64,000 bases of DNA from a plasmid. Position numbers and translations under genes: made by a program. The notes below the pieces were generated by a model. It saw only the letters and a program-made list of their open reading frames with translations, was not told the DNA's origin and did no database searches. The stretch lies in the sequence record CP019900.1; one strand, given 5' to 3'. This document shows, piece by piece, positions 22,300 to 40,112 of the stretch (its first letter is position 1; each line of letters begins with the position of its first letter).

Positions 22300-22647
22300 A
22301 TGGATTTTGAAGCGCGGAAACAAAAGGCGCTGGCGATAATGGCCAGCCGTAAGATGTGGAAAAGCAATTATGCACCGCTTCTGATACGACTGTTGTGGCG
22401 GCTGGGGATAAACATTCCCCCGCTGCCGTTTGCTCCGCTCTGGCAGGTTTTTGGCGTGATGACAGGCTCTTTCTCCGTCGGATACGGACTGTGGATGTAC
22501 TGGATGGTGTGGCGGGCCCAGGGGATGCCACCCCTGTTCGCTTGCAAAATCAGTCTTATCGCGGGCGTATTATTTGGCCTGACGATGGCACTGTTTCATC
22601 TTTGGCGGCGAAAGGTGAATAAATTACCTGACTGGAAAGATTTATAA
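22300..22647 (+). CDS. hypothetical small membrane protein
   Basis: 115 aa, hydrophobic helices. Confidence 0.4.
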   Translation: MDFEARKQKALAIMASRKMWKSNYAPLLIRLLWRLGINIPPLPFAPLWQVFGVMTGSFSVGYGLWMYWMVWRAQGMPPLFACKISLIAGVLFGLTMALFHLWRRKVNKLPDWKDL

Positions 22648-23117
22648 CGGAATAAATATAGGCTGTCAGGTGGGGGATATTCCCGATCTGACAGATTCCA
22701 CATCCTCTTAAAAAACATTAACCCTGTATGGTGCGGTTATTATATGTGACTGCGTCCGTACTGGTGTTACTCTTGTCCGGAAAGGTCTGTTGTTTTTCTT
22801 ATTGTCTCATAGTCAGAAAAATATATTCAAACGAAAGAGAGGTAAAAGGGTGAAAGGCGTTGTGGCTGAGGCGTGTGTGTTGCCCAGGTATGGGCAGGCG
22901 CGAAGAATTACAAGCCGTTCGGTATACTGAATGGCCGATTCGGGACTGCCTCGTCCCCGGGGTATGTGACGTTTATAAGTGCTCAATTTTCAATTTAAAT
23001 CATCCACTTTCAGAATTTAACTGATTTCAATATTTTCATTGCATCACGACGGGTGATTTATGAAATGCACAGGCATTCTTATCGAGCGCTAATTATCAAA
23101 TGGAAAGGAATGTTACT

Positions 23118-23762
23118 ATGTTTAAATATTTTATTCTGCGCACACAGCAGCAGCTGTTCTGTTATTTCTGCGGTATCGTGCTTGCGATGGTTCTTATGCT
23201 CCTGTTCCCTTCTGTTTTACGGGGGAGTGGGTTTTATCTGCTTTTATCGTCTGTTGCGCTGTTCTGGGCAGGCCTTGCCCTTTATACCCGTCACATCGAC
23301 CGGATGAGAAAGCCAGAGGTCACACCGCTGGTCAGTATTCGCGACGGTATTCAGGTGGTGGCCGAGGTGCCGCGCCATGAAAAGGCCCGACTGGAATGGG
23401 AAATACTCCGGGATGATGAGGTGTTTCGCCAGCAAAGGTGGGAGCTTACTGGCCTGACCGGACGGGTTATCAGCCGGGGGCTGTTGTATACGCCGGCGGT
23501 GATGCTGGGCGGTATCGGTATTCTCGCCTGGGGTTCCCCACAGGATGCCATCCGGCTGATTAATGCTCTTCGTAATATGCCTGCTGCGGAACTGGTGCAT
23601 CAGATTGGTTTTGTCCTGTGCCTCTTCCTGCAGATTAGCGTCATATCAGTTCTGATTGCTGATGTTGTAGCCGGGAGAGGATTACCGAATGTATTTCGCC
23701 GCGCGTTGCTCGACAGGCTGCCGGCAGAGTTCTGCCTTATCAGAAGAGGGACAGAAAGATGA
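23118..23762 (+). CDS. hypothetical membrane protein
   Basis: ORF 23100-23762, probable start MFKYF at 23118; N-terminal TM helices. Confidence 0.4.
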   Translation: MFKYFILRTQQQLFCYFCGIVLAMVLMLLFPSVLRGSGFYLLLSSVALFWAGLALYTRHIDRMRKPEVTPLVSIRDGIQVVAEVPRHEKARLEWEILRDDEVFRQQRWELTGLTGRVISRGLLYTPAVMLGGIGILAWGSPQDAIRLINALRNMPAAELVHQIGFVLCLFLQISVISVLIADVVAGRGLPNVFRRALLDRLPAEFCLIRRGTER

Positions 23763-23869
23763 GGAAGACGACAGGTCTAACCATCAGCGCGATTGCCCGT
23801 GAATTCAATACTACACGACAGACCATTCTCAGAGTAAGAGCGGCAATGGAAGACTCTAACCCTTTGTAG
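23759..23869 (+). CDS. 36-aa helix-turn-helix peptide (possible remnant of a recombinase/transposase DNA-binding domain)
   Basis: MRKTTGLTISAIAREFNTTRQTILRVRAAMEDSNPL; ATGA overlap with upstream ORF. Confidence 0.2.
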   Translation: MRKTTGLTISAIAREFNTTRQTILRVRAAMEDSNPL

Positions 23870-24061
23870 ATAATTGCTTTTTCAATGAATCGCGCCGTTT
23901 ATGCTCTTGTGCTTGATGCCCGCGGGTAGGAGTTAGTACTTAAAGGTATAGGTCAATTTCGCCGGAACACTTGCGCTGGAATGGGATAAAGATGAGATGT
24001 GCCGCGCTCGCTGATATCTGAAAACTGACGAAGGGCAACATCACTTTATATCCTTAAAATA

Positions 24062-24090
24062 AAAGAAAAGCCGACCATAGGTCGGCTACG
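24062..24090 (-). terminator. Rho-independent terminator downstream of the ooxA-like gene
   Basis: on minus strand GTAGCCGACCtatGGTCGGCTTTTCTTTTATTTT. Confidence 0.45.
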
Positions 24091-24140
24091 CAAATTAGCG
24101 ATGCAGCGAACATACATTTAAAACATCATATATGGAGCAT

Positions 24141-25532
24141 TTAGTCGTCTACTTGTAGAGAGATAATTTCACCCAACGTGACAGGTTTCAGCGGTGGTCG
24201 AATACGGTAAAAATCCTGCTGCGTAACCTGACGTTTCTGTTCTGAGGCGATGATATTGGCAATGGTGTATCCACATTGCCTGCCCTGACAGGGGCCCATG
24301 CCCGCGCGTGTAAACGCCTTCAGCTGGTTTATGCCCGGTGAGGCCAGAGCGGCCGCCCGCCGGATGTCGCCGGCGGTGAGTTCTTCGCACCGGCACACAA
24401 TGGTTTCGTCCGCCGGTGAGACCAGACGCTGAGGAGGCGGGTAAAGGGCATCAAGCATGGGGCGAATCCCCAGCAGTTTCTTCAACCTTAACCGTAACGG
24501 CAGTGCCAGCGCATCTGCCTTTTTCTGCGCCAGAAGGCCGGCCCGGAGAGCAATGCCCAGCGCCACAATTTCGCCGCGTGTACAGGCCGCCAGTCCGCCG
24601 CCAATACCGGCGCCGTCTCCGGCAACAGAGATGCCAGCAATACTGCCTCTTCCCCAGATATCAAGCGTGGGCACCAGGCAGTTCTGCTGATGACTCCAGT
24701 GATGTTGCAACCCCAGCGATCGCGTCACGTGAACAGACGGGACAACACCTTCGTGCACAAGCACGGCATTCACGCTGACCCGTCGGGTCACACCACTGGA
24801 AAGGGTATATTCCAGTTCCTGAAGACGGCCTTCACCCAGCGCGCGGAAAGACTGAATGCCACGAATGCGACGCGTACCGGAGCGCTTTATCTGGTTCAGC
24901 CAGACGAGACCTTTGAGAATGTCTTTACGACCCCAGAATGCCTCCCTGAGCCAGGGAAGCGCACGGCGCCATTCTCCGGGCGCGCTGGTATCGAGCCAGC
25001 CCTCTATAGTGCCGCCTGCCCGGATAACCTGAGCCATGTAAAGAATGGGAAGGGGACCACTCCCGACGACCCAGGTCGGGCCTTCAGGTATCTGTCTGGC
25101 ATTTTTCAGCAGGATCTGTGCGCCGCCCACCGGCATTACGCCGGGCAGCGTCCATCCCGGGAACGGCGCAGGTCTTTCCTGTGCGCCGGTGGCCAGAACA
25201 ATCTCTTTGGCCTCAACGGATTCAGTTTTCCCGTCCCTGCGAAGAAATACCCGCCATGAAGGCTCTAACTGCCAGACCTGGGTGTTGGGCTCATAAACGG
25301 CTCCACAGGCCCTGAAATCAGCTGCCACTGAAGCACCTGATTCATACTCTTTACCCAGGATCTGTCCCAGAGGCGAACCGGCAACACCTTCAATATTGCG
25401 CCAGAGCTGGCCGCCCGGTCCCGGCTGTTCATCCACGACCAGCACTGACAGTCCGAACGTCCGCATCCGGATCGCCGCACTCATTCCTGCCGGTCCCGCG
25501 CCAACGACAATCACATCAAATTTGCGGCTCAT
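24141..25532 (-). CDS. Opine oxidase subunit A-like / HcnB-like FAD-NAD(P) oxidoreductase with C-terminal BFD-like [2Fe-2S] domain
   Basis: 463 aa; N-terminal dinucleotide fold VIVVGAGPAGMSAA; C-terminal CRCE...C..RQC cysteine cluster. Confidence 0.7.
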   Translation of the reverse strand: MSRKFDVIVVGAGPAGMSAAIRMRTFGLSVLVVDEQPGPGGQLWRNIEGVAGSPLGQILGKEYESGASVAADFRACGAVYEPNTQVWQLEPSWRVFLRRDGKTESVEAKEIVLATGAQERPAPFPGWTLPGVMPVGGAQILLKNARQIPEGPTWVVGSGPLPILYMAQVIRAGGTIEGWLDTSAPGEWRRALPWLREAFWGRKDILKGLVWLNQIKRSGTRRIRGIQSFRALGEGRLQELEYTLSSGVTRRVSVNAVLVHEGVVPSVHVTRSLGLQHHWSHQQNCLVPTLDIWGRGSIAGISVAGDGAGIGGGLAACTRGEIVALGIALRAGLLAQKKADALALPLRLRLKKLLGIRPMLDALYPPPQRLVSPADETIVCRCEELTAGDIRRAAALASPGINQLKAFTRAGMGPCQGRQCGYTIANIIASEQKRQVTQQDFYRIRPPLKPVTLGEIISLQVDD

Positions 25533-25828
25533 TTGTTCAGACTCCGGCGGCCCATCTGGCGCTCAACATGCATATTGTCCTCAACGGTGACCAGACAGGT
25601 CTGAACCGATCCCTGTCCGTTAACCACGGCCAGACAGTCAAAACAGACGCCCATCATGCAGTAAGGGGCCCGTTCGCTCATCTGTACCGGCGTGGTCCGG
25701 CTCATCAGTTTGCTCTGGCGTAGCAGGACGGCAGCGACGGTTTCGCCTGCTTCCGCTTCCGTTGCCACTCCGTCGATATAGATAACAAGCTTTTGAGAGC
25801 CGGCTGGCTGATTAAGCTTCCTGAACAT
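25529..25828 (-). CDS. Small (2Fe-2S)-binding subunit (HcnA / sarcosine-oxidase-alpha N-terminal type)
   Basis: about 99 aa from MFRKLNQ...; cysteines in ...CMMGVCFDC...; start overlaps upstream gene end. Confidence 0.55.
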   Translation of the reverse strand: MFRKLNQPAGSQKLVIYIDGVATEAEAGETVAAVLLRQSKLMSRTTPVQMSERAPYCMMGVCFDCLAVVNGQGSVQTCLVTVEDNMHVERQMGRRSLNK

Positions 25829-26939
25829 GGAACCGTCCGTAATGAAAAGGTGAAAGGCTGTCCGGGTAGGTGTCGCCTGATGCCAGGATCCGCGCGTACT
25901 GGCTGGCGTGGAAAGACGCCAGGGTGACGCCGGAGTGGCACACGGCAAGATGCGCGCCCGGGCAGGTTACAGAAGAGGCATATACCGGGCTGCCGTCTGG
26001 CGTCATGATCCGCAGAGCGGACCACTGCCGGACTATTTTTGCGCCTGAGAGCGCAGGCAGTGTCTTTATCGCTCTCGCCGCCATACGGGTTGCACCGGCA
26101 GTGGTTGTCGAGAGGTCAAACCCCACATCTTCATGCGTGGCACCGATCATCACGGTTCCTTCAGCAGTCTGACGAATTTCGCCTGATGGCAGTGGAAGGA
26201 ACGATGCCAGCCTTTCTGTGACAAGCAACTGGCCGCGAAGGGGGGCGACGGGAGCTTCAAGCCCCACCATTGGTGCCAGCGTTACGTTACCCAGCCCTGC
26301 AGCCAGCAGGACTTGACCCGAACGGAAACTCGCATGCTCTGTGATGACCTCAAAGCCACCGTCTGCAAGGGATGAAATCTGTCTGACGCGGCTGTTATTC
26401 TGAATAAAGCCACCGCGCAGTAGAAAGGCTTTATGAAGCGCCGAAAGCAGGCGCAGTGGATTGACGTGTCCGTCAGTCGGGCCGAAACACGCACCCACAA
26501 CGTCTTTGCCCAGCCTGATATCGGGAAAGCGGGCGTTCAGTTCGCTGCGGCGTAACATCTGGACTGGATGCGAGAGTTCCGGCATCTGAGCAATCCACTC
26601 ACTCATCTCACGGGAAAAGTTGGAAAATTCTTCTTCGCTCAGGCAAAACTCCAGCCCACCATTATTTTCATAATTGAGGGTGAGCCCGCTTTCGTCTTCG
26701 AGCTCCCGGGCAAAGGCGGGCCATTGTGAGACCGCCTCCACGGAGAGGCGCTGATAGGCCGGATCCCCAAGCCCTTTACCTGCTGACCAGACGAGACCAA
26801 AGTTCGCTTTAGCGGCCCGGAGATCCGTGTCTTCGGCATCCAGCATCAGAACGCGAAGCGGCAGCTTTGATAGTCCCCAGGCGATAGCTGCGCCAGTCAT
26901 ACCAGCACCCACAACTATCAGGTCATACTCACGTTGCAT
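25812..26939 (-). CDS. Opine oxidase subunit B-like / HcnC-like FAD-dependent oxidoreductase (DAO family)
   Basis: 375 aa; N-terminal DLIVVGAGMTGAAIA FAD fold. Confidence 0.7.
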   Translation of the reverse strand: MQREYDLIVVGAGMTGAAIAWGLSKLPLRVLMLDAEDTDLRAAKANFGLVWSAGKGLGDPAYQRLSVEAVSQWPAFARELEDESGLTLNYENNGGLEFCLSEEEFSNFSREMSEWIAQMPELSHPVQMLRRSELNARFPDIRLGKDVVGACFGPTDGHVNPLRLLSALHKAFLLRGGFIQNNSRVRQISSLADGGFEVITEHASFRSGQVLLAAGLGNVTLAPMVGLEAPVAPLRGQLLVTERLASFLPLPSGEIRQTAEGTVMIGATHEDVGFDLSTTTAGATRMAARAIKTLPALSGAKIVRQWSALRIMTPDGSPVYASSVTCPGAHLAVCHSGVTLASFHASQYARILASGDTYPDSLSPFHYGRFHVQEA

Positions 26940-27689
26940 TATGCGGAGTTCCTACAGGCTGAATAATAAACAGTGCTGCTGTCTGGTACTGAACGAGTAA
27001 ACGGCCAAGGGTAGTCCACTGGCCTTGAGTAAAAGACAACAAATTGTCCGGGTCTTTTACAGTGTTTTCTCGGGAGCCCAGAAATACAGGTGCTGCGTGA
27101 CAGGATGCTTGCGAGGTTATACAGCTTCGGCACCGCAGTCATGGATATGAAACAGCGTGAAGAATGCCAATTCAAATGAGTTTCAGAAGGACTTTCATGC
27201 GTAAATGTTATGCATGCATTAAACCGGGCTAGGCCTTGCTGAATACAGTTATTTAATCGTTGTTTTTTCAAAGAAAAATTCATAATTTCTTCAGGGCAAT
27301 AAAAAATCATACTTGTTGCTGAGGGCCATAGTGTTTTCTTATCTGACGAATGAGTTAAAGAAAAGCTCGTTACTGAATGTTTTTGAGGGATGAGTCTATC
27401 ATTCTGATATTAATTGATATTTGTCCCATGAAACCTGACTGGACACATTGTATTAGTTTCGGGCATAACATTCACTCATGACAGCCATCTTATTTTTTAT
27501 TATTCAGTAAACAGGCTTCGTGGCAACACTGCTGACAGGTTTTAAACGTTAATGAAACCATGAAAAAGACTAATTTCACGAAATTATTCTTCCCAATAAA
27601 ACCGCATCTGTAAAAAAACAACTTTAAACAAGGCACGGTCAATAAGCCGCACTGACTTTCTATTTTATTCAACATGAAAGGCCATAATT

Positions 27690-28520
27690 ATGAAATTTGC
27701 TATTGCAACCCTGTTTGCTGCTGCTGCGTTTTCAACTTTTTCAACTTATGCGCAGGATACTATTCAGATTGCTACTGAAGGGGCTTATAAACCTTGGTCG
27801 TTCGTCAATGACAGCGGCAAGCTGGATGGTTTTGAAATTGACCTCACAAATGCGCTTTGCGCACGAATTAAGGCTGAATGCAAAGTATCAGCTCAGAACT
27901 GGGATGGGATGATCCCGGCACTCAAATCAGGCAAGTTTGATGCGATCGTAGCGGCAATGACGATTACGCCAAAGCGACAGGAAGTTATCGGATTTTCCGA
28001 AGCTTACGCAGCGTCACCTAATACGTTTATGGTGCTAAAAGATGGTCCTCTTGCGAACATGAAATCGACCGGAAAAACGTTCGATCTGTCAGACGCTGGA
28101 AACATGGCTGATGCAGAACTGGCTAATATGGCACGGGAACTCAGGGGAAAAACGGTTGGCGTTCAGGTGTCCACAACAGCGGCCTCTTTCCTGCACGACA
28201 AATTAAAAGGGGTAGAGGTTCGTGAATATAAAACGTTTGATGAGTCTGAACTTGATTTGCTTGCCGGACGCGTTGACGCAGTCATGGCAAACATCACCGT
28301 ATTGAGTGATGCGCTCAAACGGAAAGATGCAAGTATTGCCCAGCTTGCCGGTCCTACGCTGGTGGGGTCGCCGTTTAACTCTGTTGCAATAGGACTGCGT
28401 AAAGAAGATGCTGCACTGAAATCTCAGCTGGATGCCGGAATTAAATCTCTGCGTGACGACGGCACAATTAAAAAACTCAGTGAGAAATGGTTCGGGGTGG
28501 ATCTTTCTCCTCGCTCCTGA
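27690..28520 (+). CDS. Periplasmic octopine/nopaline-type (LAO family) substrate-binding protein 1
   Basis: 276 aa with signal peptide; ...IATEG.Y.PW.F....GKLDGFEIDL.NALC...K..C.....NWDG..P.L..GK.DAI.AAM..TPKRQEVIGFS..YA... matches recalled OccJ/NocT. Confidence 0.8.
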   Translation: MKFAIATLFAAAAFSTFSTYAQDTIQIATEGAYKPWSFVNDSGKLDGFEIDLTNALCARIKAECKVSAQNWDGMIPALKSGKFDAIVAAMTITPKRQEVIGFSEAYAASPNTFMVLKDGPLANMKSTGKTFDLSDAGNMADAELANMARELRGKTVGVQVSTTAASFLHDKLKGVEVREYKTFDESELDLLAGRVDAVMANITVLSDALKRKDASIAQLAGPTLVGSPFNSVAIGLRKEDAALKSQLDAGIKSLRDDGTIKKLSEKWFGVDLSPRS

Positions 28521-28719
28521 GATGAAGAGTGTTGCTGCAATTTTAAATCAGCAGGCTGGCGCACGTCGTCAGCCTGTTAACCTTCATATCCTGATTCTCC
28601 CGCGCTGGGCTGTTCGAAAATACTCCCTGCATGTTCATTTAAGAGGAGGATGAATGCACCCGATAAGCACACTGGACTCTTTCATAGTATTTAGTTATGA
28701 CCCTCTCGCTGGATGCGCG

Positions 28720-29631
28720 CTACTCTTTGGGGAGCATCAGCTCTTCCTGTAAAAATCTCCAGAATCCATCTGAAAACTCCGTTGTCAAATCACCCCGGCG
28801 GGATTCCACCGCGCTAAGCTCCGTGAAACCCGCTTCAAGAGAGGGTTCAAAACGTCTGATGATCAGTCCTCTGTCCAGAAACTCGGATGCAGCAAAGTGG
28901 TCGATAACGGCAATAGCCCCACCTTCGAGCACGATTGAACAGGCCGTCAGTGACTGGTTGGTTTCAATCGTTGATGTGCGTTCGATACCCTCAAGAATCA
29001 GACTCAGTCTTTTTGAATAGGTTGAGCCGGGATCCACTTCGATGATGTTTTCACCAATAAGATCGCTGCGGGTCAGCACCATTTTTTCAGCCAGCGGGTG
29101 GCCTTGCGGCAGGGCCACCACGGCATCAATTGAACGCTGGCGACAAAGCATACCTGCACGGTTGAACTGAAAATCCACATAGCCCAGTTCAGCATCACCC
29201 GAGGCGACTTTTTCGATAACAGCGGGTGACGTCGCTGCTTCGAGAGAGACGTGCAGACCTTTTCGGCCCCGGACAAAGCGCCCTACATAGCGCGCAAGCA
29301 TACCCGCTGCCAGAGCTGGCATGGCAAATATTCGCAGCGTACCGGCGAAGTTACGACCAATATCCTGCGCCGCACGTCCTATCCGGTCCAGTCCCACAAA
29401 GGCACTCTGTACTTCCCGCATTAACGTGAACGCAGCCGGCGTCGGAAGCAGCCGGTTGCCGCGCCGATCAAACAGATGAAGATTAGTTGCCCTTTCAAAA
29501 TCGGCAATCAGCCGGCTGACGGCGGGCTGAGTCACAAACATGAGCTCGGCCGCGGCGGTTATCTGTCCTGTCAGCATTACTGCCCGGAATGCTTCGACCT
29601 GTCTTAGATTTAGGCGGTGCGTCTGGTGCAT
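28720..29631 (-). CDS. LysR-family regulator, OccR/NocR-like
   Basis: N-terminus LNLRQVEAFRAVMLTGQITAAAELMFVTQPAVSRLIADFE and downstream blocks match recalled OccR; divergent from the permease operon. Confidence 0.8.
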   Translation of the reverse strand: MHQTHRLNLRQVEAFRAVMLTGQITAAAELMFVTQPAVSRLIADFERATNLHLFDRRGNRLLPTPAAFTLMREVQSAFVGLDRIGRAAQDIGRNFAGTLRIFAMPALAAGMLARYVGRFVRGRKGLHVSLEAATSPAVIEKVASGDAELGYVDFQFNRAGMLCRQRSIDAVVALPQGHPLAEKMVLTRSDLIGENIIEVDPGSTYSKRLSLILEGIERTSTIETNQSLTACSIVLEGGAIAVIDHFAASEFLDRGLIIRRFEPSLEAGFTELSAVESRRGDLTTEFSDGFWRFLQEELMLPKE

Positions 29632-29913
29632 AACATCTCCTTATGACGCAATTCTCCTGTACCGGTAAAATCCTTGAATCCTGTGAGCAGAGATCTGTAA
29701 AGCTACAGGTGAATACAGTAAGGAGGAGTTGAGGTCATAAATAATCAGTATTCAGCTCAAACTAACACCAAAATCCCACGTGATTCAATGTGTAATAGGA
29801 AGCATAATATTTAGTAATGCAAGGTCGGCAAATTTTGATTTTTCACATTCGCCATTCCGTTGCAACACTGCTGTAACAGTGAATAAGCATTTGTGCAATA
29901 CGAAGGTTGAGCT

Positions 29914-30633
29914 ATGTCGATATTTGAACTTTTCTCGTTCGGAGAGGGAGGGTGGGGTTATCTGCTGCTGAGTGCGTTGATAACCACGCTTGGCCTCGCT
30001 ATCGCAGGGATGTGCCTGGGTGCAGTGTTTGGCATTTGTGGCGCGCTTTCTGCCTTATCTGGCATACACGTGTTGCAAGCCTTGACCCGTGTTTACACCA
30101 CTATTATGAGGGGCATTCCCGATCTGCTCGTTGTTTATTTGTTTTACTTCGGGTCATCAAGCGCTCTGACAGCGATAGCACATTTGTTCGGGGCAAAGGG
30201 ATTTGTCGGAGCGCCGGAATTTGCCATTGGCGTCTTTGCGCTGGGGATTGTTTCGGGTGCTTACCTTACGGAAGTTTTCCGTGGAGCGATTCAGGCTATC
30301 GATAAAGGTGAAATAGAGGCTGCGCTGGCTTTTGGCATGCGCCTTCGCCAGCGAATGGTTCGGATTGTTCTGCCACTTGCCTTCCGACATGCACTGTCCG
30401 GGATTGGTAATGTCTGGCAGATGGTTCTGAAAGAAACGGCGTTGCTGTCTGTCATTGGCGTGGTCGAACTTATGCGACAGTCGCAAATTGCCGGCGGTTC
30501 AACGCACAAATATTTTACGTTCTACCTGGCGGCCGCGCTGATTTACTTCGCTATTTCATGGATATCAGGGCGTGGTTTTGCCCGCGCAGAAAAATATACC
30601 ATGCGATCCCTTAACCGCAATTCAGGGCAATAA
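29914..30633 (+). CDS. ABC permease (OccQ/HisQ-like)
   Basis: 239-aa polytopic protein with EAA-like loop ...EAALAFGM... Confidence 0.8.
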   Translation: MSIFELFSFGEGGWGYLLLSALITTLGLAIAGMCLGAVFGICGALSALSGIHVLQALTRVYTTIMRGIPDLLVVYLFYFGSSSALTAIAHLFGAKGFVGAPEFAIGVFALGIVSGAYLTEVFRGAIQAIDKGEIEAALAFGMRLRQRMVRIVLPLAFRHALSGIGNVWQMVLKETALLSVIGVVELMRQSQIAGGSTHKYFTFYLAAALIYFAISWISGRGFARAEKYTMRSLNRNSGQ

Positions 30634-30635
30634 AC

Positions 30636-31355
30636 ATGCTAAACGAAGCCACGTTCATCTATGAAATGTTTATTCGCATGCTGCCCGGTATTCCTCTGAC
30701 ACTGCAGCTTGCAGCAACGTCTATTGCATGCGGTGGTTGCCTTGGGCTGGTGCTGGCCCTGATGCGAACCTCAGGCTGGGCATTGCTGGATGCATTTGCG
30801 CGTGCCTACATCGCCCTTTTCCGTGGAACCCCACTTCTTGTCCAGATTTACCTGATTTATTACGGTCTGAGCCAGTACCCTGAGCTGCGGTCCAGTGTGC
30901 TTTGGCCGCTCCTGCGCCAGCCATGGTGGTGTGCTGTTCTGGCGATGTCACTGAATACGGCAGCGTACGTCGCGGAGATTATTCGCGGCTCAATTATCAC
31001 CGTGCCAAGAGGGCAGGTTGAAGCCGCCATGGCTTGTGGCATGAGCACCGTACTGATGTACCGCCGCATCATTATCCCACAGGCTCTGGTTCGCATGCTC
31101 CCAGCATATGGCAATGAAATCATCCTGATGGTGAAAGCCACCGCCCTGGCCTCAACAATCACGCTGATGGAGGTCACGGGGCTTGCAGCACAGGCGATTT
31201 CAGAAACCTATCGCCCGGTCGAAGTTTTTGCCGCTGCCGGTGTTATTTATCTGGGACTGAATTTCCTGATGGTCAGCATTATTCGGTTGCTTGAGAAAAA
31301 GACCTCAACGGAGGCATCGTCCGGGAAACAAACGCTCAAACGAAGCTATTTCTGA
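30636..31355 (+). CDS. ABC permease (OccM/HisM-like)
   Basis: 239 aa; ...EAAMACGMS... EAA loop; 2-nt spacing from the previous permease. Confidence 0.8.
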   Translation: MLNEATFIYEMFIRMLPGIPLTLQLAATSIACGGCLGLVLALMRTSGWALLDAFARAYIALFRGTPLLVQIYLIYYGLSQYPELRSSVLWPLLRQPWWCAVLAMSLNTAAYVAEIIRGSIITVPRGQVEAAMACGMSTVLMYRRIIIPQALVRMLPAYGNEIILMVKATALASTITLMEVTGLAAQAISETYRPVEVFAAAGVIYLGLNFLMVSIIRLLEKKTSTEASSGKQTLKRSYF

Positions 31356-31455
31356 TTTCGCCAACCCGGTGATGTTTACAGCCGGGAGTTTACCGGCACG
31401 CTGCGTTCCAGCGTGCCGATTGAAACCAACATCACAAAAAAATCAGGACAGTAAA

Positions 31456-32292
31456 ATGAAACTAGCCCTTGCCACACTCATTGCCATTCTCTCCGCAGCA
31501 GCAGTTCCTGCACAGGCTCAGGACACCATTAAAATTGCAACCGAAGCCTCTTTTGCCCCCTGGTCCTTTACCAACGCATCAGGAAAGCTTGATGGATTTG
31601 AAATTGAATTTGCAGATGCGCTGTGCACCCGTATTCAAGCGAAGTGCCTGGTCAGCAACCAGAGCTGGGATGGTCTGATCCCCTCGCTGAATGCCGGAAA
31701 ATACGATGCGATTGTTGCCTCTATGAGCATTACGCCGAAACGCCTGGAGGTTATTGACTTCTCTTCACCTTACGCTGCCTCCACTAACTCGTTCCTGGTT
31801 TTAAATGGAAGCCCTGCAGGCGATTTAGACTCCACCGGCATCAACCTGGGTCTGGAAGCGGATAAAGAAAAAGCTGATAAAGCCATCGGAATTATCGATA
31901 AACAACTGAGTGGAAAAATCGTTGGGGTACAGGCTTCAACCACGGGAGCCACATTCATGGCATCACGCTTACCGTCAGCTGAAGTGCGCGAATACAAGAC
32001 CATGGATGAAGCCACGATGGATCTTGCTGCTGGCCGTATTGATGCGCTGCTGGGCAACGTCACTGTACTGCAGACGTCGCTTAAGCGGGACGATATGAAA
32101 GATGCGAAGCTGACCGGTCCGCTCTTCCAGGGTAAAGCTTTCGGGGAAGTGGGCATCGGACTGCGTAAGGGCGACAGCGCGCTTAAAGAACAGCTTAATA
32201 GCGGAATTAAATCACTGAGTCAGGACGGTACCCTCAAAAAGCTGAGCATCAAATGGTTTGGTGTGGATATAACACCGTCTGCCGTTAAATAA
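31456..32292 (+). CDS. Periplasmic octopine/nopaline-type substrate-binding protein 2
   Basis: start MKLALATLIAILSAAAVPAQAQDT (signal peptide) inside ORF 31291-32292; paralog of SBP1. Confidence 0.75.
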   Translation: MKLALATLIAILSAAAVPAQAQDTIKIATEASFAPWSFTNASGKLDGFEIEFADALCTRIQAKCLVSNQSWDGLIPSLNAGKYDAIVASMSITPKRLEVIDFSSPYAASTNSFLVLNGSPAGDLDSTGINLGLEADKEKADKAIGIIDKQLSGKIVGVQASTTGATFMASRLPSAEVREYKTMDEATMDLAAGRIDALLGNVTVLQTSLKRDDMKDAKLTGPLFQGKAFGEVGIGLRKGDSALKEQLNSGIKSLSQDGTLKKLSIKWFGVDITPSAVK

Positions 32293-32348
32293 AAAAGCAA
32301 TCGCAAAATATTAATTAAATTTATTTTTGATATCGCTTCCTTGTATGT

Positions 32349-32372
32349 GTCATTTAATGGCCTGCATGCAGG
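32349..32372 (+). terminator. Rho-independent terminator after SBP2
   Basis: GGCCTGCATGCAGGCC then TATTTTTTAT. Confidence 0.55.
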
Positions 32373-32516
32373 CCTATTTTTTATAGTTACAGGGTTGCCG
32401 AAACAAATAAGAGTCATATTCACACGCAAAAAGTATATGCGTAATGAGGGGCGCAGATTGCTGATACCCTACAGGGTTTCCTGCGCCTGAAATAAGACAG
32501 AATACTGAGGTTCATC

Positions 32517-33746
32517 GTGAACGAGACGAATATTCAACGCAGTAATTTCGACAGCCTGATGGTTCCCGCTTATTCGCCAGCAGAATTTATTCCCGTAAGA
32601 GGAAAAGGTTCCCATCTCTGGGATCAGGCCGGTAATCAGTATATAGACCTTGCTGGTGGCATCGCGGTTAATGCCTTGGGACACGCCCATCCCGTAGCCG
32701 TTCAGGCGCTGCAGGAGCAGGGCAATCTTCTCTGGCACCTCGGTAACGGTTATACCAATGAACCGGTATTGCGTCTGGCAAAACAACTGACAGAGTCAAC
32801 CTTTGCCGATAAAGCCTTCTTCTGCAATTCCGGTGCAGAGGCCAATGAGGCGGCACTGAAGCTGGCCCGTAAGGTGGCGCGCGATAACGGCCAGCCAGGT
32901 AAAACCGGCATTATTGCCTTTAACAATGCCTTTCATGGGCGCACCCTGTTTACCGTGAGCGCCGGTGGTCAGCCAAAATACTCCGAAGAGTTCGCACCGT
33001 TACCACAGGGCATTGAACACGTGCCTTATAACGACCTGGCGGCAGTCGCTGACCTGATCAGCAACGAAACCTGCGCGGTAATTGTTGAGCCGGTTCAGGG
33101 GGAAGGTGGTGTTCTCCCGGCTGACGCGGATTTTCTGCAGGGACTGAGAGCACTGTGTGACAAGCATAAGGCACTGCTCATTTTCGATGAAGTGCAGACA
33201 GGCGTGGGACGTACCGGTGACCTCTATGCGTATATGGCCTATGGCGTTGTGCCTGATGTGCTGACCACGGCAAAAGCGCTGGGTGGTGGATTTCCGATCG
33301 GCGCAATGCTGACCACTGATGCACTGGCGGCATCTATGTCCCCTGGAACGCACGGCACGACATACGGTGGCAATCCGCTGGCGTCAGCGGTGGCTGGCGC
33401 CGTATTTAACTTCATCAATACGCCTGAAGTGCTTGAGGGCGTTCGTGAACGACACCGCTATTTTGTTGAGGGCATTTCGCGCCTCAACGAGAAATTCGGT
33501 GTGTTTACCGAAATCCGCGGCGCAGGCCTGCTGCTCGGTTGCCAGATGGAAAGCCGGTTTAGTGGCAAAGCGAAGCAGCTCACAACGCTTGCCAGCGAAG
33601 AAGGATTGCTTTTGCTGATTGCCGGGCCGAACGTCGTGCGTCTCACGCCTTCCCTGATCATTCCGTTTGCTGACATCGATGAGGGACTTCACCGTCTTGA
33701 GCGCGCGATGACCCGATTCGTTGCAACACAGGCACCGCAGTCATGA
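32517..33746 (+). CDS. astC: Succinylornithine transaminase
   Basis: GTG start after GAGG; near-colinear with recalled E. coli AstC (…[30 protein letters not shown]…). Confidence 0.85.
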
Positions 33747-34767
33747 TGCTTATCCGCCACGCGGAACCCCGCGATCTGGATGATTTGCTGATTCTGGCTG
33801 AAAAAGCCGGATTCGGACTGACGTCACTGCCGGTCAATGACGTCACGCTGGCCGCACGCATCGAACGTGCACGAAAAACGCTGCGCGGAGAGCTCGATAA
33901 AATGGATCAGGGCTATGTGCTGGTGCTGGAAGATACGGCGGTTGGCCGCGTGGTGGGTATCAGTGCCATTGAGGTGGCCGTTGGTCTCTCTGAGCCCTGG
34001 TATAACTTCCGCGTCGGCAATCAGGTTCATGCCTCAAGAGAACTCAGTGTATATAAGGCGATGCCTACGCTCTATCTGAGTAATGACTTAACCGGTCACA
34101 GCGAGCTCTGCACGCTTTTCCTGGACCCGGATTACCGGCACAGCCACAACGGCAAGCTCCTGTCCAAAATCCGTTTGCTGTTTATTTCGGCGTTCCGTGA
34201 GCACTTTTCTCCCAAAGTCATTGCGGAGATGCGCGGCTACTCTGATGAGAACGGGCGCTCTCCGTTCTGGGCCGCGCTCGGACAGCACTTTTTCAACATG
34301 GACTTTGTCCGGGCAGACTACCTCAGCGGTACCGGGCAGAAGGCGTTTATCGCAGAACTGATGCCGCGAAACCCGCTATATATCGACTTCCTGCCCGCTG
34401 ATGCCCGTGAAGTCATCAGCGTGGTGCATCCACACACGGAACCCGCCAGAAAGCTGCTCGAAGCTGAGGGCCTGAGCTATCAGGGATTCGTAGATATCTT
34501 TGATGGTGGCCCCACGCTTGAGGCTGAACTCAGCAAGCTCCGGGTGATGCGTGAAAGCAAATGTCTCCGGGCTGTCTGCGGCCAGCCGCCGGCCGAGGGG
34601 GTGCTTTGTCTGGTTTCAAACACAAACTACCTGAACTATCGCGCTGTTCTCAGCACTTTCACCCCAGAAGCAGACACCGTTGCTCTGACCGAGGCTGACT
34701 GCGACGCTCTTGGCATCGGTGAAGGGGATCAGGTTCACATCGTTGCGCTCAACTCACGGGAAACATT

Positions 34768-34771
<4 letters not shown>
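33743..34771 (+). CDS. astA: Arginine N-succinyltransferase
   Basis: [13 protein letters not shown]... aligns with recalled AstA (MMVIRPVERSDV...). Confidence 0.85.
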
Positions 34772-36245
<1,474 letters not shown>

Positions 36246-36256
36246 TGGAGCCAATC

Positions 36257-37594
36257 ATGTCAGGAACTGAAGTCAATTTTGATGGGCTGGTAGGCCCGAC
36301 GCACCACTATGCGGGGCTGTCCTTCGGGAATGAAGCGTCCACCAGGTACCGTAATACCGTTGCCAATCCCAGGCTGGCGGCAAAGCAGGGGCTGATGAAA
36401 ATGAAGGCCCTTGCCGATATGGGCATGATCCAAGGGGTGATGGCTCCGCATGAACGCCCCCATATTCCTCAGCTGCGCAGGCTGGGATTCAGCGGCAGCG
36501 ATGAGGCCATTTTGCAGCAGGCGATGCGGTATTCGCCTCAGTTGTTATCAGCCCTGTGCTCGGCCTCTTCCATGTGGACGGCGAATGCGGCAACGGTCTC
36601 GCCATCAGCGGACAGCCGGGATGGTCGTGTCCACTTCACGGCGGCGAATCTGAATAACAAGTTCCATCGCTCGATAGAGCCGGAGACGACCTCCGCGCTT
36701 CTGCGCGCCATGTTCCGAAGCGAGGCCCATTTCGCACATCACGATTCCCTCCCGCAGGTGGCAATGATGGGGGATGAAGGGGCGGCCAACCATAACCGAC
36801 TTGGTGGAGACTATGGTTCGAAAAGCGTTCAGGTCTTCGTATACGGCCAGCATATGCTCGGCTCTGTGCCGGGGCCTTCCCGTTATCCTGCCCGTCAGAC
36901 ACGCGAGGCCAGCGAAGCAATAGCCCGGCTGCATCAGCTGGATCCGGATTACACCGTGTTTGTGCAGCAAAACCCTGACGTCATCGATCAGGGGGTGTTC
37001 CATAACGACGTGATAGCCGTCAGCAATCAGCAGGTGCTCTTTGTGCACCAGCAGGCTTTTCTGCAGCAGGCGTCGGCGCTGGATGAAATACGTCGCAAAG
37101 TCGCGCTGACCGGGCGTGAGCTGGTCACGATTGAGGTTCCATCAGACAGCGTTTCGGTCCCGGAGGCGGTGAGCACCTATCTTTTCAACAGCCAGCTGCT
37201 GACGCGCCGTGACGGGGGTATGACGCTGGTTGTGCCTGAAGAATGCCGTCAGAATCCGCGCGTCTGGGCATATCTGTCAGAAATGACGTCAACCACGCCG
37301 GTGGACCAGGTCTGTGTGTTTGATCTGAGGGAGAGTATGCGTAACGGCGGCGGACCCGCGTGCCTGCGTCTGCGCGTGGCGCTGACGGAGCAGGAACTGT
37401 CCGCTGTAAACCCAGATGTGCTCCTTGATGACGCTCTGTACAGCAGGCTGGACCGCTGGATTGAGCGCCACTATCGCGACCGGCTGACCCAGGAAGATTT
37501 GGCCGATCCTTCACTGCTACGGGAAAGCCGTACGGCTCTGGATGAACTGACCATCATTCTCGGGCTGGGGTCTGTTTATCCGTTCCAGCAATAA
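36257..37594 (+). CDS. astB: N-succinylarginine dihydrolase
   Basis: [28 protein letters not shown]... matches recalled AstB. Confidence 0.85.
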
Positions 37595-37639
37595 ACGTAA
37601 CCCCGGCAGGCCTATCTGTCCGGGTGCAGGAGTACAGCA

Positions 37640-38641
37640 ATGAATTTTTTCCTGGAAGATACTCTCCGGAGCACCATACCTCAGCTTCAGAGAGGAGAGA
37701 GGCAAAATCTGCACTGGCGCTGGCTGGGGGAGGGGATCATGGAGTTGACCCCGACTACGGGATACCGGGAGTCCGTGGTTATTTCGGCGGGGATACACGG
37801 AAATGAAACGGCACCAATTGAGCTGCTGGATCTTATTCTGAGCGATTTGCTCTCCGGAAAGCTGGCACTGCGCGTACGTCTTCTGGTTATCCTGGGTAAT
37901 CCTCCCGCTATGCGTGCTGGTAAGCGATATCTGTCGACGGATATGAACCGTATGTTCAGCGGGCGCCATAAAGATTTTACGCCCAGTTACGAAACAGAGC
38001 GCACGCGCAAACTGGAAGCCGTGATGACAGCTTTCTGGTCAACAAGCTCATCGGTAAAGGGCGCCTCTCGTTTCCACTACGATTTACACACGGCGATTAA
38101 AGGCTCCCATCTGCCGCGCTTCGGTTTGCTTCCCTTCCAGAACCGCCCATATCACCGTGAACTGTTAAAACGACTTGAAGCAGCCGATCTGGATGCTCTG
38201 GTAATGCACCAGGAGACCGGAAATACCTTCAGTCACTTTAGCAGTGAGCAGTTTCTGGCAGAGAGTTGCACGCTGGAGTTGGGCAAAGCGAATCCTTTTG
38301 GTGAAAACAAGCTATCGGATTTCAGGGCAATAGACCGTGTGCTTCGGGCCCACCTTGGTGGCCTGCCGTTTCCGCACAGAAGTTTGCCACCGGTACGCCT
38401 CTTCCGGGTGGATCGTACGCTTGTCAAACATGCCGATGACTTTGAGCTGGGGGTGCCTTCAGAGACGCTTAATTTCACTCAATTTGAAAAAGGTGCAGTC
38501 CTGTGCCGGGAAAATGGTTCTGAACAGCGCGTTGAAAACGATCAGGAGTGGATGCTCTTTCCAAACCCCGGTGTTCAGACCGGTATGCGGGCGGGGCTGA
38601 TGCTGACGGAACTTAACCGATGGGTTCATTCTTCGCCCTAA
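37640..38641 (+). CDS. astE: Succinylglutamate desuccinylase
   Basis: ...WRWLGEG..ELTP......VISAGIHGNETAP.E.LD... matches recalled AstE. Confidence 0.8.
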   Translation: MNFFLEDTLRSTIPQLQRGERQNLHWRWLGEGIMELTPTTGYRESVVISAGIHGNETAPIELLDLILSDLLSGKLALRVRLLVILGNPPAMRAGKRYLSTDMNRMFSGRHKDFTPSYETERTRKLEAVMTAFWSTSSSVKGASRFHYDLHTAIKGSHLPRFGLLPFQNRPYHRELLKRLEAADLDALVMHQETGNTFSHFSSEQFLAESCTLELGKANPFGENKLSDFRAIDRVLRAHLGGLPFPHRSLPPVRLFRVDRTLVKHADDFELGVPSETLNFTQFEKGAVLCRENGSEQRVENDQEWMLFPNPGVQTGMRAGLMLTELNRWVHSSP

Positions 38642-38682
38642 AGACCGCATTTCATGAATATTCGATTTACCGGGGAAAACCT

Positions 38683-39456
38683 ATGTCAGAAACAAAATTA
38701 GTTGTAACCGAACTGCACAAGAAATATGGCGAACATGAAGTTCTCAAAGGGGTATCCCTCACGGCCAGTTCAGGTGATGTGATATCAATCATCGGGTCAT
38801 CCGGTTCGGGTAAAAGCACGTTTTTACGCTGTATCAATTTCCTTGAAAAACCCAGTGAGGGAACGATTCGAATTGGCAATACAGATGTTGGTCTGGTTCG
38901 AGACAAAGATGGCGAACTTCGGGTCTTTGATAAAAATCAGCTGCAATTGTTAAGAACGCGCCTTGCCATGGTATTCCAGGGCTTCAATTTATGGAGCCAC
39001 ATGACGGTACTGGAAAACGTCATGGAATGCCCTGTGCACGTTTTAGGCGTCAGTAAGGAAGAGGCCCGTAATAAGGCCGTAGCCTATCTGAATAAGGTCA
39101 ATATCAGCGAGCAGGCTTTCAACCGACATCCATCTCAGTTATCTGGTGGACAGCAGCAACGCGTGTCCATTGCCCGTGCGCTGGCGATGGAGCCTGAAGT
39201 TATTCTGTTTGATGAACCTACGTCAGCACTGGATCCGGAGCTGGTAGGCGAGGTGCTTAAAATCATGCAGCAGCTTGCTGAAGAAGGGAAGACGATGATA
39301 GTGGTAACTCACGAAATGGAGTTTGCACGCCATGTGTCGAACAAGGTGGTGTTTCTGCATCAGGGCAAAATTGAAGAGCAGGGCTCTCCACAAGAGTTAT
39401 TTGATAATCCTAAGAGTCTGCGTCTTCAGCAGTTTTTATCAGGTTCACTGAAATAA
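38683..39456 (+). CDS. Polar amino acid/opine ABC transporter ATP-binding protein (HisP/OccP-like)
   Basis: Walker A GSSGSGKST, signature LSGGQQQRV, Walker B ILFDEPTSALD; ATG at 38683 inside ORF 38620-39456. Confidence 0.8.
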   Translation: MSETKLVVTELHKKYGEHEVLKGVSLTASSGDVISIIGSSGSGKSTFLRCINFLEKPSEGTIRIGNTDVGLVRDKDGELRVFDKNQLQLLRTRLAMVFQGFNLWSHMTVLENVMECPVHVLGVSKEEARNKAVAYLNKVNISEQAFNRHPSQLSGGQQQRVSIARALAMEPEVILFDEPTSALDPELVGEVLKIMQQLAEEGKTMIVVTHEMEFARHVSNKVVFLHQGKIEEQGSPQELFDNPKSLRLQQFLSGSLK

Positions 39457-39484
39457 ACCATTAATCAGTTTATCAGGAATAAAA

Positions 39485-39841
39485 ATGAGTAACGATATTC
39501 AAAGAATACAGAGTAATGAGCGTCTCAGTCGGGTTGTAGTCCACAACGGTATCGCCTATTTGTCAGGTGTGACAGCAAACGATACGACAACCGGCGTAAT
39601 GGCGCAGACTTCGGATGTGTTGGGCAAGATTGATGCCTATCTCGAATTGGCTGGAACCGACAAATCCCGTCTTTTGTCCGTACAAATTTGGCTGAGGGAT
39701 ATCGACAGAGATTTTGATGATATGAACAAAGCCTGGGCTCAATGGATACCAGAAGGGTCTGCACCTGCCAGAGCAACGGGTGAGGGCCGGCTGGCAGGTG
39801 CGGATATTTTGGTTGAAATGATTGTTACTGCTGCAATCTAA
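39485..39841 (+). CDS. RidA/YjgF family enamine/imine deaminase
   Basis: 118 aa, YjgF-like. Confidence 0.7.
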   Translation: MSNDIQRIQSNERLSRVVVHNGIAYLSGVTANDTTTGVMAQTSDVLGKIDAYLELAGTDKSRLLSVQIWLRDIDRDFDDMNKAWAQWIPEGSAPARATGEGRLAGADILVEMIVTAAI

Positions 39842-40112
39842 TTCGTAAAAATAAATATTTTTTTAACCCTCGGCTGGAGATCCCGGCCGATAATGATTCT
39901 GAACCGAAAATCCTTCTTCATTCAGTATCAGAGCCCCGGGCTTTATACATACTCCCCTATACGTTGACTAAGTTCTGATAACCACTATTAAAAAAATTTT
40001 CTGGGTTACTTTAGCTACTTTCCTCTCACTGTCTTTCATATCTAATTAAGTGATGACATAAAAGTATACCCTAATGTCACAACATGAATTTAACCTGTTT
40101 AGGGGGCTGAGG

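Follow-up and report, generated by a model that had tools for sequence, protein, structure and literature searches.

A plasmid-borne odhBCA operon of Klebsiella with the features of a flavin-containing opine dehydrogenase, set in a putative arginine-opine catabolic island

Gene structure and subunit motifs of odhBCA

We analysed a stretch of 64,000 nucleotides (nt) from a plasmid (sequence record CP019900.1), called here the window, which means the full 64-kb stretch and not the operon under study; all coordinates are those of the window. Its minus strand carries three overlapping genes, referred to as odhB, odhC and odhA, for the subunits beta, gamma and alpha of a predicted dehydrogenase that uses flavin adenine dinucleotide (FAD), and a terminator-like structure behind them (lengths in amino acids, aa):

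25812-26939, minus strand: odhB (ooxB-like), beta (catalytic) subunit, 375 aa, DAO-family flavoprotein
25529-25828, minus strand: odhC-like gene, gamma subunit, 99 aa, [2Fe-2S] ferredoxin-like
24141-25532, minus strand: odhA (ooxA-like), alpha subunit, 463 aa, FAD-binding, with a C-terminal BFD-type Cys motif
24059-24087, minus strand: intrinsic-terminator-like hairpin and T-tract 3' of odhA, 8-bp stem with 6 GC pairs

The length of the gamma subunit is counted from the ATG at 25828, which is also the start annotated by RefSeq in the identical region of a Raoultella plasmid. As read from the sequence, odhB and odhC overlap by 17 nt, with the beta stop codon TAA (25814-25812) lying inside the gamma gene, and odhC and odhA overlap by 4 nt, the gamma stop and the alpha start being joined in ATGA. 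The terminator stem AGCCGACC-TAT-GGTCGGCT occupies 24087-24069 and is followed by the T-rich TTTTCTTTTATTTT; its folding energy of -16.8 kcal/mol (z = -4.0) was equalled by none of 200 shuffled sequences. The odhBCA unit is divergent from the gene at 27690 that encodes the binding protein SBP1, and it ends in its own terminator. An earlier reading of this DNA, made from the sequence alone (the sequence-only reading), had described overlapping start and stop codons in the three genes, a terminator at 24062-24090 and a separate transcription unit facing away from the transporter genes. Every particular of this observation is confirmed, the terminator coordinates being essentially right and the divergent orientation holding as well. 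As a candidate fourth gene we also considered the open reading frame (ORF) at 26939-27310 (minus strand, 123 aa), which ends in a TAA that shares bases with the start codon of odhB (TAATG). It is probably not a gene, as it lacks a Pfam match, conservation in the Celerinatantimonas locus described below and an annotation in RefSeq.

The domain content agrees with this gene layout. The beta subunit matches Pfam DAO (pfam01266, 1.8e-54), the gamma subunit Fer2_4 (4.1e-21) and the alpha subunit Pyr_redox_2 (2.5e-17), Fer2_BFD (2e-10, residues 378-429) and SO_alpha_A3 (3.8e-10). In an alignment of 13 loci or homologues, OoxB/A and NoxB/A among them, the GAGMTG ADP-binding motif (the N-terminal GxGxxG) and R-Q-W of beta are conserved, also in comparison with OoxB and NoxB. 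The gamma motif C-MMGV-C-FD-C-X12-C (Cys-X4-Cys-X2-Cys-X12-Cys) has four Cys that are invariant in the 13 sequences, and GAGPAG and C-R-C-E...C-Q-G-R-Q-C of alpha are likewise invariant. The Cys spacing of alpha, C-R-C-X32-C-QGRQ-C, is 32-33 residues in all 13 sequences, OoxA and NoxA included, whereas 15-20 residues are printed in the paper that defined the motif (PMC4575208).

The ooxB-ooxA and noxB-noxA "oxidases" of tumour-inducing (Ti) plasmids belong to a three-subunit family encoded as OdhB-C-A by overlapping genes (Watanabe 2015, PMC4575208). The motifs given for this family are GxGxxG and Arg-X-Trp, a putative flavin mononucleotide (FMN) site, in beta, Cys-X4-Cys-X2-Cys-X11-12-Cys in gamma, and GxGxxG with Cys-X-Cys...Cys-X4-Cys in alpha (PMC4575208). 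The window proteins keep all of these diagnostic motifs, both copies of GxGxxG and R-x-W as well as the Cys motifs of gamma and alpha. The beta-gamma-alpha order is found in 12 of the 12 examined loci that have all three genes, both Ti plasmids included. Over the full length, beta is 40.6% identical to OoxB and 40.8% to NoxB (BLASTP), alpha is 39.5% identical to OoxA and 46.8% to NoxA, and gamma is 44-45% identical to the unnamed 2Fe-2S ORFs between ooxB and ooxA and between noxB and noxA, the octopine Ti plasmid being the source of the Oox proteins and pTiC58 that of the Nox proteins. These identities to Oox and Nox (40-47%) closely parallel those published for the nopaline dehydrogenase of Pseudomonas putida (PpOdh), which are 39.6/40.4% to OoxB/NoxB and 40.5/48.1% to OoxA/NoxA (PMC4575208).

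The likeness to PpOdh extends beyond these values. OdhB-C-A of P. putida KT2440 (PP_4457/unnamed ORF/PP_4456) and of Bradyrhizobium japonicum have the same beta-gamma-alpha order and overlapping ends (PMC4575208), and PpOdh and the window enzyme have in common a DAO-family beta, a 2Fe-2S gamma of ~9-11 kDa, an alpha of ~46-50 kDa, the same cofactor motifs, similar alpha and gamma N-termini and a clustered ATP-binding cassette (ABC) transporter. At its N-terminus alpha reads MSRKFDVIVVG, similar to the SRTFDVVIVG obtained by Edman sequencing of PpOdhA (PMC4575208); the sequenced N-terminal peptide of PpOdhB is absent from the 120 best beta homologues, and none of the 120 has a P. putida name. 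PpOdh is a membrane-bound alpha4-beta4-gamma4 enzyme with FAD, FMN and [2Fe-2S] (PMC4575208) that oxidises nopaline with artificial acceptors or cytochrome c, not with O2 or nicotinamide dinucleotides (NAD(P)+) (PMC4575208), and we infer a similar cofactor content, subunit stoichiometry and electron acceptor for the window enzyme. Whether the BFD motif of alpha holds a [2Fe-2S] cluster is uncertain, because the characterised enzyme contained only ~2 Fe per alpha-beta-gamma unit (PMC4575208).

OdhB-C-A is the closest characterised family, and gene order, overlaps and cofactor motifs all match. On these comparisons odhBCA very likely encodes a member of the flavin-containing opine dehydrogenases (OdhB-C-A/OoxBA/NoxBA). 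The sequence-only reading had proposed a three-subunit FAD/[2Fe-2S] dehydrogenase with an OoxB-like beta, a ferredoxin-like gamma and an OoxA-like alpha, a proposal that domains, motifs and the 40-47% identity support, as the Fer2_4 match and the four invariant Cys support its 2Fe-2S assignment of the middle gene. The BFD-type Cys cluster that it saw in alpha is present and invariant, and only the occupancy of the cluster is uncertain. Among relatives it had named Oox, Hcn and D-hydroxyproline enzymes, and OdhABC was missing from it.

Searches of model and structure collections brought up a different family. The best NCBIfam matches are soxA-family for alpha and ThiO for beta, and the best solved-structure matches for beta are glycine oxidases, which could be taken to indicate a heterotetrameric sarcosine oxidase or a homologue of glycine oxidase (ThiO) with small N-methyl amino acids as substrates. 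All these matches fall far below the curated cutoffs, with 94.7 bits against 1164 for soxA (TIGR01372), 36.2 against 529 for soxB (TIGR01373) and 136.2 against 250.8 for ThiO (TIGR02352). Moreover, alpha has 463 aa compared with ~965 aa in SoxA and lacks the folate-binding half, and neither delta/gamma sarcosine-oxidase subunits nor thiamine genes are encoded nearby, so that we give this identification almost no credence. No Hcn-, Lhp- or Oox-specific model is among the NCBIfam matches of the three subunits, and the Protein Data Bank (PDB) holds no close structure, the best match of alpha being Pyrococcus PDH1 alpha (1.4e-9) and gamma having none.

The surrounding island and a proposed opine pathway

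The gene order around the operon is odhA < odhC < odhB; SBP1 >; < LysR; Q > M > SBP2 > astC astA astD astB astE > ABC ATPase > ridA > IS903B. The neighbours are the following:

27690-28520, plus strand: SBP1, OccJ-like periplasmic opine-binding protein, 276 aa
28720-29631, minus strand: OccR-like LysR-family regulator, 303 aa, 52.6% identical to OccR over 293 aa
29914-30633, plus strand: OccQ-like ABC permease, 55.3% identical to OccQ
30636-31355, plus strand: OccM-like ABC permease, 57.4% identical to OccM
31456-32292, plus strand: SBP2, second OccJ-like binding protein, 278 aa
32517-38641, plus strand: astC-astA-astD-astB-astE, arginine succinyltransferase (AST) pathway, after the RefSeq annotation of the identical pKPYL2 island
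38683-39456, plus strand: ABC transporter ATPase, annotated hisP, OccP/NocP-like role, Pfam ABC_tran 2.3e-35
39485-39841, plus strand: RidA-family imine/enamine deaminase, Pfam Ribonuc_L-PSP 1.4e-18

The same functional set is found in the occ operon of the octopine Ti plasmid (occR, occQMPT, ooxB, 2Fe-2S ORF, ooxA, ridA, ocd), with an OccR-like regulator divergent from the genes of the permeases Q and M, an ATPase, an OccJ-like binding protein, a three-gene dehydrogenase and RidA. On the octopine Ti plasmid ooxA is followed by RidA genes, and RidA genes also occur with other odhBCA clusters. The regulator and transport proteins are 49-57% identical to their occ counterparts, whereas the dehydrogenase subunits are only ~40% identical. 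The two systems also differ in organisation: the dehydrogenase is a separate divergent unit in the island and the distal part of the occ operon on the Ti plasmid, the island has two binding proteins and removes arginine by astCADBE whereas occ has one binding protein and ornithine cyclodeaminase, and the island resides on an IncF-type Klebsiella plasmid. The noc region of pTiC58 has the same three-gene dehydrogenase, and NoxA is the Ti-plasmid protein most similar to the window alpha. Its transporter order P-T-Q-M, the nopaline signature of NocT and the hydantoinase genes are all absent from the island, and all three adjoin the homologues in Serratia and in two further loci, L004 and L005. Finally, PpOdh is nopaline-specific and chromosomal and has an NAD(P)H opine synthase-like gene nearby, whereas the window operon is plasmid-borne in Enterobacteriaceae, is paired with octopine-signature binding proteins and is fused to the AST arginine pathway.

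The neighbours point to a class of substrate. LysR, Q and M are each closer to their occ than to their noc counterparts, and both binding proteins, which are paralogous and 55% identical to each other, have OccJ (5ORE) as best PDB match, SBP1 with 284 bits versus 205 for NocT and SBP2 with 275 versus 201. The octopine signature consists of Glu30-Tyr33-Trp71-Ser91-Arg96-Asn111-Gln159-Thr163-Ala164-Asn202 (Vigouroux 2017, PMC5740067) and was defined in the OccJ subgroup, whose members are >69% identical to OccJ (PMC5740067). SBP1 has 9 of the 10 residues, with Ser91 replaced by Thr. SBP2 has 8 of them (Y33F, A164G) and keeps Ser91, which sterically excludes nopaline in OccJ and in the NocT-G97S mutant (PMC5740067). 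In the alignment neither protein has any residue of the NocT ketoacid signature G97-M117-S169-H170-S207. Because each protein keeps most of the octopine signature and nothing of that for nopaline, octopine-family opines are the likely substrates (octopine itself, perhaps also octopinic acid or lysopine) and would yield pyruvate. The signature makes this a good argument for the ligand class and not a proof, and SBP1 (Thr91) and SBP2 (Ser91) may differ in ligand range.

Putting the enzyme and its surroundings together, we think it probable that odhBCA encodes an opine dehydrogenase that splits octopine-family opines into arginine and pyruvate and thereby catalyses the first step of an arginine-opine catabolic island; for the octopine-type substrate as such, which is read from the context only, our preference is a mild one. 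SBP1 or SBP2 would bind the opine and the Q/M/ATPase transporter would take it up, under the control of the OccR-like LysR regulator. On the model of the characterised enzymes, the beta subunit would then take a hydride from the N2-(1-carboxyalkyl) group of the arginine-type opine, at the carbon with D configuration, and flavin and the Fe-S cluster would hand the electrons on to the respiratory chain and not to O2 or NAD(P)+, the enzyme being presumably membrane-associated and dye-linked. The resulting imine would be hydrolysed, possibly with the aid of the island RidA, to L-arginine and a 2-oxo acid (pyruvate), and AstCADBE would convert arginine to glutamate and succinate.

The neighbourhood also bears on two other enzymes with three subunits. 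In hcnABC loci, which encode hydrogen cyanide (HCN) synthase, the order is hcnA (small 2Fe-2S)-hcnB (alpha-like)-hcnC (beta-like), that is gamma-alpha-beta. HCN synthase is a related three-subunit flavoenzyme with the same types of motif, and OW968447.1, a K. oxytoca record with the identical region, labels the three genes HcnB, HcnC and HcnA. However, the window order is beta-gamma-alpha, the adjoining genes are for an OccR-like regulator, a transporter of basic-amino-acid/opine type and arginine catabolism, none of them related to glycine or cyanide, and the RefSeq names for the region are generic only. In addition, HCN synthase was placed outside the Oox/Nox/Odh subfamily (Watanabe 2015, PMC4575208). 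We hold cyanogenesis to be highly improbable, and the Hcn names in OW968447.1 are very probably wrong. The same automatic annotation calls SBP1 "octopine-binding periplasmic protein". The sequence-only reading had set an affinity to Hcn or to sarcosine oxidase against an arginine-derived substrate; what we found are sarcosine oxidase models far below cutoff and a gene order that is not hcnABC.

The second enzyme is D-hydroxyproline dehydrogenase (D-HypDH, LhpBEF-type), or another heteromeric dehydrogenase of D-amino acids or secondary amines acting on free D-arginine, D-ornithine or N-methylated arginine. D-HypDH shares the alpha4-beta4-gamma4 architecture and the beta-gamma-alpha gene order, so that order alone does not discriminate, and a DAO-family beta could in principle oxidise D-amino acids. 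Genes for hydroxyproline 2-epimerase, pyrroline-4-hydroxy-2-carboxylate deaminase and α-ketoglutarate semialdehyde (KGSA) dehydrogenase are nevertheless lacking from the island, whose genes are of opine type and not of proline type, and D-HypDH forms a subfamily separate from Oox/Nox/PpOdh in the published tree (PMC4575208) while the window enzyme is 40-47% identical to Oox and Nox. A role of this kind therefore seems very unlikely. An Azospirillum plasmid match (43.8%) that had been considered as a possible D-HypDH reference was discarded, as it turned out to be an opine-type B1-C-A-B2 cluster. This cluster (Azospirillum brasilense plasmid, L026 8980-14573) comprises odhB1-C-A-B2, two RidA genes and a polyamine-type ABC transporter, and it mirrors the B1-C-A-B2 "subunit exchange" arrangement of Bradyrhizobium (Watanabe 2015, PMC4575208).

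Candidate regulatory DNA and distribution of the island

Three short elements in the spacers of the island stand out as candidates for regulatory DNA:

27192-27214, odhB-SBP1 spacer: conserved block CTTTCATGCGTAAATGTTATGCA with a TGC-N11-GCA dyad (LysR-type T-N11-A), candidate operator of the odhBCA promoter
27517-27534, minus strand: 18-nt motif CAGCAGTGTTGC[C/A]ACG[A/G]A, copy 1, upstream of SBP1
29856-29873, minus strand: 18-nt motif CAGCAGTGTTGC[C/A]ACG[A/G]A, copy 2, in the divergent lysR/permease-Q spacer

About 20 of 21 bases of the first block are identical in Celerinatantimonas, where the rest of the ~750-nt spacer has diverged, with insertions and deletions, and partial inverted copies of the block occur at 27463-27484 and 29627-29646. 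The 18-nt motif has exactly two matches in the 64 kb, against 0.02 expected, and both copies are conserved in Celerinatantimonas. Copy 1 overlaps a promoter-like TTGCCA-16-AATAAT at 27526-27499 (minus strand), and the motif is a candidate for a shared operator or promoter element. The copies of the 18-nt motif and the conserved dyad suggest, at the level of DNA motifs, that the OccR-like protein controls the separate transcription units as a single regulon. We claim no promoter for the two minus-strand promoter-like sites in the odhB-SBP1 spacer, 27526-27499 and 27614-27586, as such sites are no commoner there than in shuffled sequence; the better of the two matches 10 of 12 positions and lies ~560 nt upstream of odhB.

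The region is rare. It is present at 100% identity in only 5 of 72,556 PLSDB plasmids, four from Klebsiella and one from Raoultella ornithinolytica, with human, dog and sewage sources, and none of 5,426 complete E. coli genomes gives a match. The F-type transfer genes TraI and TraX lie just upstream in the window. A segment of approximately 22582-41161, which ends in IS903B, is shared with an otherwise different Raoultella plasmid and is therefore taken to be an island of ~18.6 kb carried as cargo. At its left end, a gene for a DUF6404 protein (22300-22647) and a 220-aa ORF (23100-23762) lie between finO and the island; the ORF, which has no Pfam match and is "hypothetical" in the Raoultella copy, is followed by a resolvase/helix-turn-helix fragment; the genes at 22300-23762 look like the remnant of the left-hand part of a transposon. 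In the library that we searched, no paper describes the island in Klebsiella; chromosomal occ/noc-like transporters of K. variicola and K. quasipneumoniae are the subject of a 2025 paper, which deals with another locus.

Relatives elsewhere, substrate specificity and biological meaning

Homologues of the beta subunit number in the thousands; the best ones outside Klebsiella are 78-81% identical, followed by a group at ~60% in Burkholderiales, Pseudomonas and Serratia. Our genome-collection scan gave 14 loci, none from P. aeruginosa or P. putida. One of them is chromosomal and belongs to Celerinatantimonas sp. MCCC 1A17872, a marine gammaproteobacterium (L009 4665-12808; beta 78%). Its core reads P < M < Q; LysR >; < SBP; odhB > C > A, and all eight proteins are 73-86% identical to those of the island, among them LysR (82%, in the same position) and the ATPase that ends the Q-M-P operon (86%). 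The binding protein, orthologous to SBP1, has the octopine signature at 10 of 10 positions, including Ser91. The S-G-E motif of beta discussed below and both regulatory DNA motifs are common to this locus and the window, whereas SBP2, astCADBE and ridA are absent from it. Therefore the island looks like this core with an arginine-degradation module between M and P, and a marine gammaproteobacterial origin of the core is suggested. The Celerinatantimonas core is flanked by siderophore-uptake genes and an amidase gene. That the dehydrogenase is the entry step of the island pathway, as the sequence-only reading had thought likely, gains support from this synteny with an opine-type transporter and regulator and from astCADBE downstream.

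The AST genes have a parallel elsewhere. On the chromosome of Serratia sp. 1D1416 (L007 1820-21182), astCADBE lies directly beside a noc-like odhBCA with P-T-Q-M and hydantoinase A/B, and its AST genes are 60-78% identical to those of the island, so the association of AST with an opine dehydrogenase is not unique to the Klebsiella island. In the window copy, astD (34768-36245) is broken into two ORFs: compared with the otherwise identical Raoultella pKPYL2, its G7 run is one nucleotide short (G6 here, ~35511-35516), which is either a real frameshift that would inactivate the AST pathway of the island or a sequencing error.

Several observations weigh against an octopine-specific pathway as proposed above. 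A promoter-match scan found no convincing promoter close to odhB. With astD frameshifted in the window copy, the downstream pathway may be impaired here. Identity to OccJ is 53% for SBP1 and 49% for SBP2 by BLASTP (50.5% and 48.4% in the multiple alignment), below the >69% range of the signature, and SBP1 has Thr at the critical Ser91 position of OccJ. As for the enzyme, some of the ~60% beta homologues are named "nopaline dehydrogenase" in database entries, and most of them adjoin NocT-type or Opp-type transporters, so that enzyme similarity alone would suggest nopaline or another opine. In the metagenomic locus L004 (beta 78%, alpha 83%) the dehydrogenase genes are followed by P-T-Q-M, with a binding protein that shows 70% identity to NocT and a complete nopaline signature.

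A rival reading is a physiological substrate other than octopine within the same enzyme family, namely nopaline or another non-octopine opine (2-oxoglutarate-type or an unknown N-carboxyalkyl amino acid), in which case the octopine-like transporter would have been recruited secondarily or would carry something else. Alpha is nearer to NoxA (46.8%) than to OoxA (39.5%), L004, the closest homologue outside the lineage, is linked to the NocT-like binding protein, the Serratia homologue (beta 61%, alpha 69%) resides in a noc-like cluster with hydantoinase A/B as on pTiC58, and the characterised relative PpOdh is nopaline-specific (PMC4575208). On the other side, enzyme, binding protein, regulator and permeases are co-inherited at 73-86% in Celerinatantimonas, which argues for a co-adapted unit; neither SBP1 nor SBP2 has a nopaline-signature residue, position 91 being Thr or Ser; and beta has its own rare S-G-E in place of A-S-G (3 of 120). 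We consider a substrate of this kind unlikely. The homologues of Pseudomonas syringae and Pandoraea adjoin Opp-type transporters, the P. syringae cluster also having ornithine cyclodeaminase.

How little the enzyme alone says about its substrate is seen in the trees, which were built by neighbour-joining with bootstrap from the Oox and Nox sequences and uncharacterised homologues alone. Celerinatantimonas and L004 group with the window at 100% bootstrap, inside a 100% clade with Serratia and a JGI locus, and Oox and Nox fall outside. Since the type of transporter switches within this tight enzyme clade, enzyme sequence alone does not fix the substrate. The sequence-only reading had held that the substrate cannot be read from sequence, and this is true of the enzyme itself, whose 78-83% identical homologues go with nopaline- or octopine-type transporters; in the locus, however, the co-inherited OccJ-signature binding proteins and the OccR-like regulator point to octopine-family opines.

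What separates the two occ-linked enzymes from the three noc-linked ones is no more than eight positions in beta and one each in gamma and alpha. The occ-linked residue is that of OoxB at W21, H169 and S252 (three of the eight beta positions), and the noc-linked residue is that of NoxB at Y21, A252, S253 and V267. Before the conserved Arg-Gln, the window (P-S-G-E-I-R-Q) and Celerinatantimonas have P-S-G-E-[IL]-R-Q, where OoxB has S-A-G; A-S-G is found in NoxB and in 105 of the 120 best beta homologues, and S-G-E in only three of the 120. The S-G-E variant would fit a change of specificity that accompanied the change of transporter, in what is a small sample. Tentatively, and with more doubt than conviction, we also entertain that odhBCA and its Celerinatantimonas counterpart represent a rare, marine-derived sub-lineage of opine dehydrogenases marked by P-S-G-E-[IL]-R-Q, with a natural substrate that is not a crown-gall opine but octopine of animal or marine source (mollusc muscle) or an undescribed N2-carboxyalkyl-arginine.

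What is the place of this operon among known opine systems? The enzyme family, the gene layout and the link to opine transport were already known, and in these respects odhBCA is a routine, well-explained catabolic operon. Three things are new: the operon is found on conjugative plasmids in clinical and wastewater Enterobacteriaceae, it has been joined to an AST pathway of the island's own and to a further binding protein, and its enzyme is of the rare S-G-E form that a marine bacterium also has. Should the prediction of an opine dehydrogenase be true, "hydrogen cyanide synthase" is a wrong name in the automatic annotations of the region. The locus also lends itself to work on specificity, because enzymes that are 78-83% identical and eight beta positions apart are paired with octopine- or nopaline-type transporters. 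Biochemical characterisation has reached only three flavin-containing opine dehydrogenases, OdhABC of P. putida and two from Bradyrhizobium, and none of the three comes from Enterobacteriaceae. With a complete module for import, cleavage and arginine degradation on self-transmissible plasmids (IncF-type) in Klebsiella and Raoultella, the "opine niche" would reach beyond plant-associated bacteria. If the operon does represent a marine sub-lineage, its capture on conjugative Klebsiella and Raoultella plasmids, along with the private AST pathway and SBP2, would open a new nutritional niche to Enterobacteriaceae of clinical and wastewater origin.

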